The position numbers were made by a program, and so were the translations under genes. DNA of 64,000 bases from Candidatus Multivoradales bacterium (GTDB lineage Bacteria > Acidobacteriota > Thermoanaerobaculia > Multivoradales > Multivoraceae): contig CBDCWI010000001.1 in assembly GCA_965223325.1 (NCBI GenBank), positions 256,001 to 320,000 of the forward strand. Direction: 5' to 3'. Of this stretch, positions 347-3,898 are shown one piece after another. Positions within the stretch are counted from its first letter, which is position 1. Each line of letters begins with the position of its first letter. The notes under the pieces are model-generated. The model saw nothing but the letters and a program-made list of their open reading frames with translations. It made no database searches and was not told the DNA's origin.

Positions 347-2332
347 TCAGGAACCGGCGGCGTTCTTCGAACGCGGCACAAAGTAGAACATGCCACCCTC
401 GTCGGCGCTGCGCGGCAGCGCCGTGAATGTCGGGTACTGCGGCGCCTCCAGGCGCTCTGAGACCTCGACCACTCGCGGCGCCACTTCCCCGAACAAGTCT
501 TGCGCGGCCAGAACACCGTCGTTGTCGCGCAGTCTCTCCATGAGTTCCTGGGCAAAAACCGAATGGCCGCTTCCCGAGTCGTCGGGGACTGGCTGTATGT
601 CTCCTGAGGTCATGACCAGGCGAGAAACACGCTTGGCCTGCTCCTCGAGCGGCGCTTCTGAGGGAGGCAGATCACCATTGTCCGTGCCTGCGAAACAGGA
701 GTCGGCCACCACCAGTAGATGGCGCACCGGTAGGTCGTCGAGCCGCGGGTTGACCGCATCGACGATCGAGATCCAAGTGCCCGCCATGGTCGGCTCGGCA
801 TCGGTGGGCTGCCAATAGGGTTTGTTGTTGTACAGCTGACCGTGGCCAGCGTAGTAGACCAACAGGTTGTCGCGCGCCGTCATGGTCTGTTCGAGCTCAT
901 ACAAAGCGGCGTTGAAGTCGTCGAGTGAGGTGTTCTCGACCACCTTGACGTTGAAACCATACTGGCGTTCGAGCACCTCACCCAGGGTGCGCGCGTCATT
1001 GACCGCGGTTGCGAGTCCGGGAAGCTTGTCGTAGCGATCGTTGCCGATGATCAGGGCGTGGAAGTTGCCGAAGACCGGTAACGCGGCGCCGCCTCCCACG
1101 CGGTCAGCTGCCCCGGCGGTACCTGAAGTCGAGTTGGTCGCCACGTCGGTGCCCTTCTCGCCTCCCAGAGCACCGATTGCAAACCAACCAACCACCAGCA
1201 GGGTGACGACGGCCGCAACCAGGCCGGCCCGAAGCGGCATTCGACGGGTTCCCTTGAGGACGGTGCCACTCGCCGCTTCCTCCGCCACCGGCGGGCGAAT
1301 CGGCGGTTTCGGAGCTGCCTGCGGCGCTTCCGGCACCGGCGGCGCCTTGGTGTGGGTGCCGACGTCGACACTCGGACGCGGGCGGTCTTCGCCTTCGGTC
1401 TGGTCGTCGAGACGACGACTTCCGGTTCCGATCTCGCCCAGGTCACGGTTGTCAGGTGCCGGAATGACCAGCGACAGTTCGCTGCGCATCTCTGACGCAC
1501 TCTGGTAGCGGTCGGCAGGCTCTTTCTCGATCGAGCGCAAGAGGGCGGTGCGCACATAGTCGTCGAGCTTGCCGTCGGGATCGGTCTCTTCGAAGGTGCG
1601 CGGCGCCTGATACAGGTGGCCGGCAATGAGGGAAGTCTGGTCGGTGCCCTGGATGGGCAGCTTGCCGGTCAACAGCTGGTAGAGAACCACCCCGAAGGAG
1701 TAGAGGTCTGAGCGCTCGTCGACTTCCGAGGAAGCCGAACCGTGCTTGAGCGCCTCCGGCGAAATGTAGAGCACCTTGCCGAGTGCAATGCCGGTGCGGG
1801 TGCGATAATCGTTGGACTCGAGCGACTTGGCGATACCCAGATCGATCAAGGTGAAGTTGTAGTCGCCGCGCAGGCCCTTGCGCATCATCACATTGTCGAG
1901 TGCGATGTCACGGTGAATGAAGCGCTGGGTGTGCAGATAGTCGAGTGCGTCGAGCAGCTGCTGCGCCGCCAGCCCAACCAGGGGGAGCCCCAGGCGCTTG
2001 CCCGATTTGTACAGCTCCCACAGGTTTACCCCATCAATGTACTCCATGATGAGGTACGCTGACCCGTCGTCCGACAGCAAGAAGTCGTGGACCGTTGCTA
2101 TGTGGGGATGCCGCAGTTTGGCGGCGATTTGCGCCTCGCGCACGAAGCGCGCCTTGGCGTCCTCGAACTCGGTTCCGGCGTGGATCGTCTTGATCACCCG
2201 CACCTCGTCGAGGATCTTGTGACGGGCGCGATACAACGATCCCTGACCGCCATCGCTCAAGTGCTCGAACGAGTCGTACTTATCGGCAATCTCTGGAACG
2301 TTGTCGAACACTGGAGTCCTGCTCCCTCCCAA
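347..2332 (-). CDS. Ser/Thr protein kinase - transmembrane helix - caspase-like (peptidase C14) domain fusion
   Basis: Hanks kinase motifs (DGGQG, VIK, HRD, DLG, YISPE, DLYSFG); Pro/Ala-rich linker; TM AGLVAAVVTLLVVGWFAIGAL; C14 domain ALIIGN...YYAGHG...VADSCFAG with intact His/Cys dyad. Alternative GTG start at 2311 has a better RBS. Confidence 0.9.
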   Translation of the reverse strand: MGGSRTPVFDNVPEIADKYDSFEHLSDGGQGSLYRARHKILDEVRVIKTIHAGTEFEDAKARFVREAQIAAKLRHPHIATVHDFLLSDDGSAYLIMEYIDGVNLWELYKSGKRLGLPLVGLAAQQLLDALDYLHTQRFIHRDIALDNVMMRKGLRGDYNFTLIDLGIAKSLESNDYRTRTGIALGKVLYISPEALKHGSASSEVDERSDLYSFGVVLYQLLTGKLPIQGTDQTSLIAGHLYQAPRTFEETDPDGKLDDYVRTALLRSIEKEPADRYQSASEMRSELSLVIPAPDNRDLGEIGTGSRRLDDQTEGEDRPRPSVDVGTHTKAPPVPEAPQAAPKPPIRPPVAEEAASGTVLKGTRRMPLRAGLVAAVVTLLVVGWFAIGALGGEKGTDVATNSTSGTAGAADRVGGGAALPVFGNFHALIIGNDRYDKLPGLATAVNDARTLGEVLERQYGFNVKVVENTSLDDFNAALYELEQTMTARDNLLVYYAGHGQLYNNKPYWQPTDAEPTMAGTWISIVDAVNPRLDDLPVRHLLVVADSCFAGTDNGDLPPSEAPLEEQAKRVSRLVMTSGDIQPVPDDSGSGHSVFAQELMERLRDNDGVLAAQDLFGEVAPRVVEVSERLEAPQYPTFTALPRSADEGGMFYFVPRSKNAAGS

Positions 2333-2347
2333 GGAGCGGACGGGGAA

Positions 2348-3898
2348 CTACTTTCCCTGTCGCACGAAGAAGTATTCGGAGAGGTCGTTGCGGGCCCACC
2401 TGAGGGTGGCGAACTGGGGTGGTGGCGACTTGTCCTCCACCATGCGGTCGGTCATCGCCACGTACATGCGTGAAGCCTCGAGAACCCCGTCGTTGGTTCG
2501 CAACGCGTTGAGAAACGCGCCTGTCAGGTCACCCTTTGCGCCATCGGCACGCACCGTGTTGGCAAGTACGAGCCGCGAGCGCTTGGACAGAAGCCCGCGG
2601 ATGTAGTGGGCCCGGCGCTCGGGGCTCTGCCCCGTCGGAAGCTTGGCGATCGATGAACGAGAGCGGATGCCGGAGAACGCCGAGTCGGCGACCACCATGA
2701 CGTGCTTTGCTGAGATCACGTCGAGGTGATCAGAGAGCACGCCGCTCGGAATCCAGTTGCCGCGATCGCCGGGGCGCGCGTCTACCGGTTGCCAGTAGGC
2801 CATATTGCGGTTGTCGTCGCGCGTACCGTGGCCCGAGTAGAAGACCAGAAGGTTGTCGTTCTCAGTGAGCGTTTCGCGCATTTCATCGAGAGCCCGCATG
2901 GTCTCGAAGCGCGTCGCATCGAGCAGCAGTTCGACACGGTAGCCGTAGAGATTCTCGAGCGTCTTGGCGACCTCGCGTGCATCCTTGGCGGCCGTTTCCA
3001 CCGCCGGCATGTGCTCGTAGTTCGAGTTACCGATCACCAGGGCGTAGTAGCGACCGAACTCAAGATCGTCGGTCGACAGGGCGCCGCTCTCCTCGAGCGC
3101 CTTCGAAGCCTGCCGGCTCATGCCTTCGAGCTCTACGACGCGCGACTTACTGGCGGTCAAGGCCTTCTCGCGTTCGGCGAGCTCCTGGCGCACGGAGGCC
3201 AGTTCGGCCTCCAGCTGGGCACCTTCTGAGGCTTTCGCTTCGAGTCGAGCGACCTGGCCCAGGAGGCCCGACACTTCGCCCGCCAGGCGGACGGCAAGGG
3301 CTTGTTGCTCGGCCAGTTCGGCGCGCATGGTTGCGAGATCACCTTCGGCCATGACCACCAGATCGTCTTCGCCACCGGCCGCACGGCGATAGAGCGACAG
3401 AGCCTTTTCACGGTCGGCGGGAACGCCGAGGCCGGCCTCGTAGAGATAGCCGAGGTTGATCATCGCGGCGTTGTAGCCCTTCTTGGCCGCCTTGTCGTAC
3501 CACTCAGCAGCGAGAGCGTAGTCGGGCTGGGTGCCCAGACCGCGCTCATAGATCTGCGCGACATAAAACATCGCTTCGACGTCACCACCACGCGCTTGGG
3601 GCAGCCAGACCCGCAGCGAGGTGGCGTAGTTGGCCTGGTCGGGTTCGGTGTACTCGCCACCACGAATGCGGCAGTCGGCGACCGAGGTGCGCACCGGCAA
3701 CCGGGGCGCGAGGTAGGAGCTGTGTTTGCCGATTCGTCGCACCTTGGGGCGCAAGAGGCAGTCGACGATCATCAGGTCTTCGGGCGTCTCGACACCGCGC
3801 TTCTTGCGCGCTTCGGAGGCTTGCGGGAGAGCGAAGGTGCCGACCAGGACCGCCAGGGCGGTGGTCAAGGCAAGCCGTTGTGTGAGGTGGATGGTCAT
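2348..3898 (-). CDS. Secreted Sel1-repeat/coiled-coil protein with caspase-like domain lacking the catalytic Cys
   Basis: Signal peptide ending ASEA; Sel1 repeats (AMFYVAQIYERGLG..., AMINLGYLYEAGLG...); heptad-rich region; C14 domain ALVIGN...FYSGHG...VADSAFSG. Confidence 0.88.
   Translation of the reverse strand: MTIHLTQRLALTTALAVLVGTFALPQASEARKKRGVETPEDLMIVDCLLRPKVRRIGKHSSYLAPRLPVRTSVADCRIRGGEYTEPDQANYATSLRVWLPQARGGDVEAMFYVAQIYERGLGTQPDYALAAEWYDKAAKKGYNAAMINLGYLYEAGLGVPADREKALSLYRRAAGGEDDLVVMAEGDLATMRAELAEQQALAVRLAGEVSGLLGQVARLEAKASEGAQLEAELASVRQELAEREKALTASKSRVVELEGMSRQASKALEESGALSTDDLEFGRYYALVIGNSNYEHMPAVETAAKDAREVAKTLENLYGYRVELLLDATRFETMRALDEMRETLTENDNLLVFYSGHGTRDDNRNMAYWQPVDARPGDRGNWIPSGVLSDHLDVISAKHVMVVADSAFSGIRSRSSIAKLPTGQSPERRAHYIRGLLSKRSRLVLANTVRADGAKGDLTGAFLNALRTNDGVLEASRMYVAMTDRMVEDKSPPPQFATLRWARNDLSEYFFVRQGK

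Follow-up and report, generated by a model that had tools for sequence, protein, structure and literature searches.

A secreted pseudocaspase encoded beside a kinase-fused caspase in Thermoanaerobaculia: a candidate envelope signaling or processing module

The 64,000-nucleotide stretch of contig CBDCWI010000001.1 analyzed here (positions 256,001 to 320,000, assembly GCA_965223325.1, Candidatus Multivoradales bacterium, class Thermoanaerobaculia of the Acidobacteriota; hereafter the window) carries, at 347-3898 on its minus strand, a pair of genes for proteins with peptidase C14 (caspase-like) domains. One of them, called KC here, joins a Hanks-type protein kinase to a transmembrane (TM) segment and a C14 domain with an intact catalytic dyad, and the other, the partner, is a predicted secreted Sel1-repeat protein whose C14 domain has lost the catalytic Cys. 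We put the chances at about one in two that the pair constitutes an envelope signaling or processing module with a caspase/pseudocaspase heterodimer. In such a module, KC would be an inner-membrane kinase whose single TM helix connects the cytoplasmic kinase domain with a paracaspase-like C14 peptidase that is periplasmic and catalytically competent. In the secreted partner, a C14 domain devoid of the catalytic Cys and the substrate pocket would be carried by a Cys-pair domain, Sel1 repeats, and two long helices. The dead C14 domain would bind the live one via a conserved insert between the catalytic His and Cys positions (WQPxDA...NWI), as a regulatory or adaptor subunit, and the Sel1 end of the partner would connect to another envelope component, in most relatives perhaps an outer-membrane autotransporter encoded in an adjacent gene. 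The KC kinase would in turn relay periplasmic binding or proteolysis to the cytoplasm. The direction of regulation, the kinase output, and an autotransporter link for this particular pair are parts of the scheme that we infer. The features of the two genes are the following.

347..2332, minus strand: kinase-TM-caspase fusion gene (KC; P0001), an open reading frame of 661 amino acids from TTG 2332
1508..2275, minus strand: Hanks-type protein kinase domain, KC residues 20-275 (Pfam PF00069, 131.3 bits versus a cut-off of 31.7)
1898-1921, minus strand: kinase catalytic loop HRDIALDN, KC residues 140-147, without the usual Lys
1229-1246, minus strand: RRMPLR ahead of the TM segment, KC residues 363-368
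1163..1231, minus strand: single TM segment, about KC residues 368-390 (Kyte-Doolittle 2.54)
368..1072, minus strand: C14 caspase-like domain, predicted to be extracytoplasmic (PF00656, 79.9 bits versus 21.4, residues 425-638)
2348..3898, minus strand: Sel1/long-helix/pseudocaspase partner gene (P0002), 516 amino acids, predicted secreted
3809..3898, minus strand: signal-peptide-like N-terminus with a hydrophobic stretch, about partner residues 1-30 (...ALPQASEA/RKK)
3629..3781, minus strand: small beta-rich Cys-pair domain with invariant C47 (3758-3760) and C76 (3671-3673); model strands at 44-72
3374..3628, minus strand: Sel1 repeats, residues about 91-175 (PF08238, 66.5 bits versus 30.7, two stretches); model helices at 91-173
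3092..3346, minus strand: two long helices, residues 185-223 and 228-269, with a short break between them (AlphaFold); weak coiled-coil Pfam matches
2363..3058, minus strand: pseudocaspase domain (PF00656, 62.7 bits versus 21.4) that keeps His357 (CAC, 2828-2830)

On the minus strand the partner gene (2348-3898) comes first and the KC gene (347-2332) follows. KC is likely to start at GTG 2311, as a Shine-Dalgarno-like run, GGAGGGAG, is located at 2322-2329, ten bases ahead; this start yields 654 amino acids, the length of the same KC protein in the protein collection (P0123), and leaves 36 nucleotides between the two genes. A sequence-only reading of this DNA had described two co-oriented open reading frames with paralogous C14 domains 15 nucleotides apart. 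The domains do align as paralogues, with 34% identity over 249 columns (E 3e-36), and the spacing is correct for the frame that opens at TTG 2332, the likely GTG start giving 36 nucleotides instead. A promoter and terminator scan of window positions 1-4400 placed no terminator-like site between the KC and partner genes and returned three promoter-like sites against 0.7 expected, none of them informative.

The kinase domain of KC has K48 (strand 3), E66 (helix C), D142 (HRD), N147 (loop), and D164 (DxG), all of which are invariant in an alignment of 52 KC relatives. Its best NCBIfam match is the Stk1/PknB PASTA kinase model NF033483, which reaches 199.4 bits against a cut-off of 450 and ends at residue 398, and Pfam searches found no PASTA domain in KC. 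A strong hydrophobic segment lies between the kinase and the caspase in 52 of 52 aligned KC proteins, one of which has an extra weak segment within the kinase domain, and in KC itself the segment (residues 371-389) is preceded by four Lys or Arg within 15 residues and followed by one. Topology was called from hydropathy and charge counts, and because the kinase needs ATP, the caspase domain should face the periplasm. The sequence-only reading, which had placed the active caspase outside the cytoplasm on the basis of RRMPLR and the TM helix, is supported by the segment's presence throughout the family. The dyad of the caspase domain is intact, with His497 (CAC, 842-844) and Cys546 (TGT, 695-697) both invariant in the 52 relatives, and its structural model (predicted local distance difference test [pLDDT] 89.4, predicted TM-score 0.89) has MALT1 as its nearest solved fold (E 3.4e-12), followed by metacaspases and caspase-6 (Foldseek). 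By family score, His-Cys dyad, and the predicted caspase/hemoglobinase fold, we assign KC to the C14 peptidases. The EACC1-associated caspase model NF047832 gave 71.6 bits for KC and 51.5 bits for the partner, both below its cut-off of 140.

The partner and most of 41 aligned orthologues, some rows of which are cut at the N-terminus, begin with a signal-peptide-like sequence and have no other hydrophobic segment, and the two invariant Cys residues of the N-terminal domain fit an oxidizing compartment. This Cys-pair domain (residues 40-90; VDCLL...DCRIRGGEY) is the most conserved part of the partner and is common to active and dead Sel1-caspases of both phyla; no Pfam family matches it, and an ESM Atlas search with partner residues 30-180 returned Sel1/TPR clusters only and was uninformative about it. 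The signal peptide and Sel1 repeats named in the sequence-only reading are both recovered, and of its coiled coil the helical region stands, modeled here as two long helices with a short break. The partner AlphaFold model has a mean pLDDT of 86.3, mostly above 90 across the C14 domain, and its nearest solved fold is again MALT1 (E 1.7e-10). Ala407 (GCG, 2678-2680) occupies the position of the catalytic Cys, so that the dyad is broken, and all three codons given in the sequence-only reading for the Cys and His of KC and the Ala of the partner proved correct. The pocket is also gone, with the equivalents of KC residues S576, G577, P581, V582, D584, H590, S591, F593, and Q632 replaced. By score and fold, the partner is a C14 homologue, and it is predicted not to be an active member of the family.

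The loss of the Cys is not peculiar to this genome. Among the 120 best database homologues of P0002, 96 have no Cys at the catalytic position, and the 24 that keep it rank 91st or lower; 23 of these 24 are 604-897 amino acids long, and most align over only about half of the query. We also surveyed 80 genomic loci, fetched together with an alignment of the partner orthologues, of which 39 are acidobacterial-type (38 labeled Acidobacteriota and one unlabeled) and 41 are others. The catalytic Cys is present in none of the 39 acidobacterial-type loci, the residue there being V in 17, S in 10, A in 8, H in 2, I in 1, and L in 1; the His is kept in 38 of 39, and a neighboring Ser is just 46% conserved. 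The Cys loss is therefore clade-wide, which favors the sequence-only reading, as orthologues that normally retain the Cys would have contradicted it. Five positions that are at least 90% conserved in KC (P581, V582, D584, H590, and Q632) are all lost in the pseudocaspases, including the window partner; active Sel1-caspases retain them, H590 at 83% and the remaining four at 97% or more. The fold core and, in the His-to-Cys insert, W507, P509, D511, A512, and W520 are 95-100% conserved. In a tree of 109 C14 domains (quick IQ-TREE search, LG+G4, midpoint root for drawing only), the 42 acidobacterial-type pseudocaspase domains form one clade with a Shimodaira-Hasegawa-like approximate likelihood ratio (SH-aLRT) support of 99. 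From these alignments and the tree, we judge the dead caspase to be a pseudoenzyme of long standing that has been maintained. The Cys was lost a second time, independently (DSA), in L038, L058, and L059 (Halieaceae/Luminiphilus), whose gammaproteobacterial clade otherwise consists of active Sel1-caspases; in these three loci a plain kinase is encoded nearby, and the flanks contain no kinase-fused caspase.

The two genes are also linked elsewhere, as the sequence-only reading had anticipated. KC lies within 8 kb of the partner in 24 of the 39 acidobacterial-type loci, complete in 21 and as contig-end fragments consistent with KC in 3, and its His/Cys dyad is present in 23 of the 23 loci where the caspase part is available. 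Three arrangements occur: the partner followed by KC with a 16-nucleotide gap or a 4-nucleotide overlap, KC followed by the partner with a 4-nucleotide overlap, and a convergent arrangement with an autotransporter between the two. When five genomes with KC-less flanks were searched whole, KC was found elsewhere in all five. The genome that contains the window encodes seven C14 domains, made up of three pairs, A (347-3898), B, and C, and one active Sel1-caspase of 767 amino acids with no kinase beside it. Its dead partners read DSA in pair A, DSE in pair B, and SS..DAA in pair C, where both the His and the Cys are lost, and the KC of pair C is 1427 amino acids long (L112:3881-8164; C2:2627881-2632164 in the same genome), with about 850 helical TPR-like residues between the kinase and the TM segment. 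In the C14 tree, KC and partner subclades mirror each other. Pairwise distances among KC caspase domains and among partners are correlated with r = 0.856 over 24 pairs, a value that 0 of 2000 Mantel shuffles reached and to which shared species history contributes, so that this mirror-tree correlation is confounded. Within the genome of the window, pairing by adjacency is the best of the six possible assignments, which is weak evidence, as it would be expected by chance in one case out of six. In the protein collection, KC forms a family of 53 clusters, and every taxon-bearing source name among them is from Thermoanaerobaculia.

A complex of the two C14 domains was modeled from KC 412-661 and partner 275-516, with a separate alignment for each chain and three controls. 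The interface score ipSAE was 0.65 (runs 0.63, 0.72, and 0.65) against 0.00 for the best control, above a mark that is passed by 58 of 80 solved complexes and by 2 of 110 mismatched pairs, and passed also by close cousins of true partners. At least 96% of contacts are common to the runs, in which the pLDDT of the partner is at least 85. The predicted interface is formed by KC 474-478, 501-504, and 515-530 and by partner 331-342, 361-366, and 378-394, which are equivalent conserved surfaces; in the monomer model of KC, they correspond to helices 2 and 3 and to the hairpin that follows the catalytic His. This complex model favors an association of the dead and live C14 domains, and the two proteins may bind each other directly. 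The dead/live interaction proposed in the sequence-only reading has support in silico only, with the predicted contact surface being the His-Cys insert.

Several points weigh against the module as we envisage it. Since the two chains are paralogues, the pass of the complex model may reflect a homodimerization habit of the family. Caspases, MALT1, and caspase-8/cFLIP dimerize via the strand-6 edge, and because the predicted interface is not this edge, activation by dimerization in the style of caspase-8/cFLIP is not carried over to the pair. The confounding of the mirror-tree correlation counts in the same direction. With regard to the kinase, the catalytic-loop Lys (HRDxKxxN) is absent from 53 of 53 KC kinases, which instead read HRD[ILMV][SA]xDN with Ser or Ala in its place, and the phosphotransfer activity of KC is uncertain as a consequence. 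The RIO and Bud32 kinases are active without a catalytic-loop Lys, so KC may also be active, with phosphorylation as its output being an assumption. Several sister kinases with TonB_C or TPR ectodomains are likewise devoid of the loop Lys, and together with KC they represent either an atypical active kinase subfamily or pseudokinases. In 15 of the 39 loci there is no KC in the fetched flanks, and 12 of these 15 form one subclade in which the partner lies beside an autotransporter only; the partner would accordingly work also without an adjacent KC gene. We dropped this subclade as evidence against linkage, given that KC was found elsewhere in 5/5 genomes searched whole. The system is also patchy, occurring in 5 of 121 genomes in an even sample of the class, where the four positives other than the genome of the window are those of L007, L023, L030, and L040, already in the locus survey and hence not independent, and in 0 of 18 other genomes of its own family. 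Finally, pair A has no adjacent autotransporter, the nearest being about 26-37 kb away in the window:

29915-35254, minus strand: autotransporter open reading frame, 1779 amino acids, with a C-terminal barrel and upstream Calx-beta matches
35702-40957, minus strand: autotransporter open reading frame, 1751 amino acids, with a C-terminal barrel and upstream Calx-beta matches

Beyond this pair, an autotransporter with a PF03797 barrel and, as a rule, six to eight Calx-beta repeats adjoins the Sel1-(pseudo)caspase gene in 53 of the 80 loci, made up of 34 of the 39 acidobacterial-type and 19 of the 41 other loci. The genes are often closely spaced, with gaps of about 20 nucleotides or less or with overlapping ends, in the order autotransporter-partner-KC or autotransporter-KC-partner. 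In the genome of the window, an autotransporter adjoins pair B, pair C, and the single active Sel1-caspase. In 26 of the 80 loci, 25 of them outside Acidobacteriota and mostly in Gammaproteobacteria, the gene next to that of the Sel1-caspase encodes a lipoprotein-like protein of 270-320 amino acids with a GxSxG motif (for example, L056:7111-7923 and L055:1931-2791), which is found also between the genes of pair B (L111:5836-6690; C2:1759836-1760690). It has weak alpha/beta-hydrolase matches (Abhydrolase_1, FSH1) under the Pfam cut-offs and could belong to the cluster as well. Of the 41 loci not of the acidobacterial type, which are mostly from Gammaproteobacteria, 35 encode a Sel1 protein that keeps the Cys. 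A plain Hanks kinase is encoded in 26 of the 41, no more than 1.5 kb away in 19, and has a TM helix followed by some 110 residues of helical periplasmic tail instead of a caspase. In the sister kinases of KC in Thermoanaerobaculia, the caspase is replaced by a TonB_C or TPR domain, and the closest non-caspase relatives, P0179, P0181, P0184, and P0186, carry a periplasmic TonB C-terminal domain. TonB_C domains bind outer-membrane barrels, and their presence on the closest relatives suggests that the whole kinase subfamily is wired to outer-membrane barrel proteins. The ancestral unit would have been an autotransporter, an active Sel1-caspase, and a receptor kinase, from which, in Thermoanaerobaculia, the live caspase would have moved to the kinase and the Sel1 copy died. 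The sequence-only reading had identified the pair itself and missed this wider conserved cluster with its autotransporter, lipoprotein, and gammaproteobacterial versions.

Taken at its fullest, the module could be a trans-envelope relay running from the autotransporter through the secreted Sel1/dead caspase to a receptor kinase with a live-caspase sensor, in which a cFLIP-like heterodimer gates both proteolysis and Ser/Thr signaling. Such a relay would be the first prokaryotic caspase/pseudocaspase regulatory pair and would have arisen in Thermoanaerobaculia from a gammaproteobacterial-type module of an active Sel1-caspase and a plain kinase by a shift of the active site to the kinase. We offer this extended version tentatively, as something possible rather than probable. 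The interpretation in the sequence-only reading is partly supported: the two genes do form a dead/live pair that is conserved and, by its topology signals, extracytoplasmic, and binding holds in silico only. Its further proposal, that the dead caspase activates the kinase through dimerization, is a hypothesis that has the non-canonical interface and the atypical kinase loop against it.

A different use of the same parts deserves some weight, though as a minority prospect: the Sel1/pseudocaspase may be a substrate-recruiting adaptor that brings an envelope substrate (for instance, the autotransporter, or the Sel1 protein itself) to the live caspase at the membrane, with the kinase in a secondary role as regulator or readout. 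The autotransporter is the most constant neighbor, adjacent in 53/80 loci and often tightly packed, the invariance of the KC dyad implies that catalysis is under selection, and since the gammaproteobacterial Sel1 protein is itself live (Cys in 35/41), a union of protease and Sel1 repeats looks ancestral. In addition, many partners are rich in Lys and Arg directly after the signal peptide, and the accessible text of PMC6426788 describes a pseudo-metacaspase, TbMC4, that is processed by the active TbMC3. Yet no cleavage site or substrate was identified, it is hard to see how a periplasmic protease would gain access to a classical autotransporter passenger outside the outer membrane, pair A has no such neighbor, and an adaptor role leaves the protease-kinase fusion in 53 database clusters unexplained. 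It is unlikely, in turn, that the two proteins have no direct partnership and are neighbors by tandem duplication and shared regulation, each acting alone in the envelope. This would fit the 15 of 39 loci with KC-less flanks, the genome G005, which has two KC and two partner genes, with about 46-54 kb between KC and partner, the possibility that the binding model is a paralogue artifact, and the expectation in the discussion of PMC6426788 that pseudo-orthocaspases do not regulate true ones. It fits poorly with the retention across subclades of three pair arrangements, in some of which the stop of one gene overlaps the start of the next (gap of -4), with the duplication of whole pairs in the genome of the window, with the persistence of KC in all five genomes that lack it in the flanks, and with the finding that wherever the acidobacterial Sel1 protein is dead, the caspase-bearing gene is a kinase fusion.

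The combination of a caspase and a kinase could also point to a cell-death or anti-phage (abortive infection) module, which we regard as highly improbable. The kinase does match the PADLOC models PD-T4-6, mad6, and MkoA (E down to 5e-62), and there are the weak matches to the EACC1-associated caspase noted above (71.6 and 51.5 bits versus 140), but the PADLOC matches span the generic kinase fold only, and the NCBIfam scores for MADS6 (130 versus 460) and PglW (64 versus 990) fall far short. The protease domains are moreover predicted to be extracytoplasmic, and the neighbors are envelope proteins and not nucleases, NTPases, or methylases. A defense system was rejected as the principal explanation, with the PADLOC and NCBIfam matches being to the generic kinase fold or far under their cut-offs. 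Scarcely credible, finally, is a partner that is still an active peptidase with another nucleophile: the retained His in 38/39 loci and the Ser at the Cys position in ten would allow for it, but the window partner has Ala, the position varies widely (V, A, S, I, L, H), the neighboring Ser is only 46% conserved, and the five pocket positions conserved in active relatives are lost.

Upstream of the pair, a terminator-like hairpin and T-run lies at 3946-3965 on the minus strand, about 50 nucleotides upstream of the partner start and within a divergent intergenic region of 340 nucleotides. The divergent neighbor is a 281-amino-acid open reading frame (4239-5084, plus strand) without a Pfam match, and beyond it lies a BD-FAE/alpha-beta hydrolase (5094-5990, minus strand, E 8e-33) with a signal-like N-terminus; we found no evidence tying either gene to the module.

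Bacterial caspase homologues are abundant, and almost none has a known role. Here, dead and live copies are kept together, duplicated, and diverge together, and a receptor kinase carries the live copy as its outward-facing domain. Provided that the two domains do bind, regulation of a caspase by a pseudocaspase would not be an animal invention, and the fusion would represent a new type of bacterial receptor kinase in which the sensor is a protease. The cluster of an autotransporter, a Sel1-caspase, a kinase, and a hydrolase-like lipoprotein is found in both Acidobacteriota and Gammaproteobacteria, and its carriers include cultivable organisms such as Marinobacter.

A full-text search of the literature found no published account of a kinase-caspase fusion accompanied by a pseudocaspase partner or of an autotransporter-caspase cluster, with the limit that figures and supplements may list such architectures. 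The prokaryotic proteins most similar to the partner are the bacterial pseudo-orthocaspases (Klemencic et al. 2019, PMC6426788), which, according to the accessible text, are likewise prokaryotic C14 proteins without the catalytic dyad that form a conserved clade, mainly Tyr/Ser variants of Cyanobacteria and Alphaproteobacteria. The partner falls within their definition, as its His-Cys dyad is missing and reads His/Ala; for the p10 region, the search comprised the C14 match. As far as the accessible text of that work goes, the partner differs from those proteins in that the His is kept, the Cys and pocket are lost, and the gene is paired with a live paralogue. Its discussion considers that prokaryotic pseudo-orthocaspases most likely play no part in regulating true ones, and the accessible text contains no word starting with "operon" or "neighbor". 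The survey of Asplund-Samuelsson et al. (2012, PMC3501461), in its accessible text, lists the combination of Sel1 with Peptidase_C14, reports Sel1 in 40 of 671 sequences, and counts 20 operons with several metacaspases. That text mentions "kinase" twice, both times for Myxococcus and not as a fusion, and describes no dead/live pairing or autotransporter link, while its tables may list a Pkinase fusion.

Among eukaryotic systems, cFLIP(L)/procaspase-8 provides the closest precedent, and it is cited for pseudocaspase regulation in the discussion of PMC6426788. As in that system, a dead paralogue is encoded beside or with the live enzyme and is predicted to bind it via equivalent surfaces. Unlike cFLIP(L)/procaspase-8, the pair described here is bacterial and predicted to be extracytoplasmic, has no death-effector domains, and has its live enzyme fused to a kinase, and the predicted interface is the His-Cys insert, whereas cFLIP and caspase-8 use the strand-6 edge. 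MALT1, whose activity depends on dimerization, is the nearest solved fold to both C14 models (TM-score about 0.67-0.72) and the best sequence match in the PDB (E 0.005). The likeness is limited by an identity of mostly 17-20% in alignments and by the lack of death or Ig domains in the proteins here; by an Ig-domain criterion, the accessible text of PMC6426788 recognizes no prokaryotic paracaspases.

With respect to the kinase, KC shares with PknB/Stk1-type receptors an N-terminal Hanks kinase, one TM helix, and an extracytoplasmic sensor domain, and it differs from them in having a peptidase ectodomain in place of PASTA repeats and in missing the catalytic-loop Lys. The closest analogue for how the module might work is the ExoR/ExoS-ChvI system of rhizobia, in which ExoR, a secreted Sel1-repeat protein controlled by proteolysis, is thought to bind the periplasmic domain of the membrane kinase ExoS. 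In comparison with the pair described here, ExoS belongs to the histidine kinases, ExoR is devoid of a caspase-like domain, and the protease of that system is not carried on the kinase, as it is in KC.

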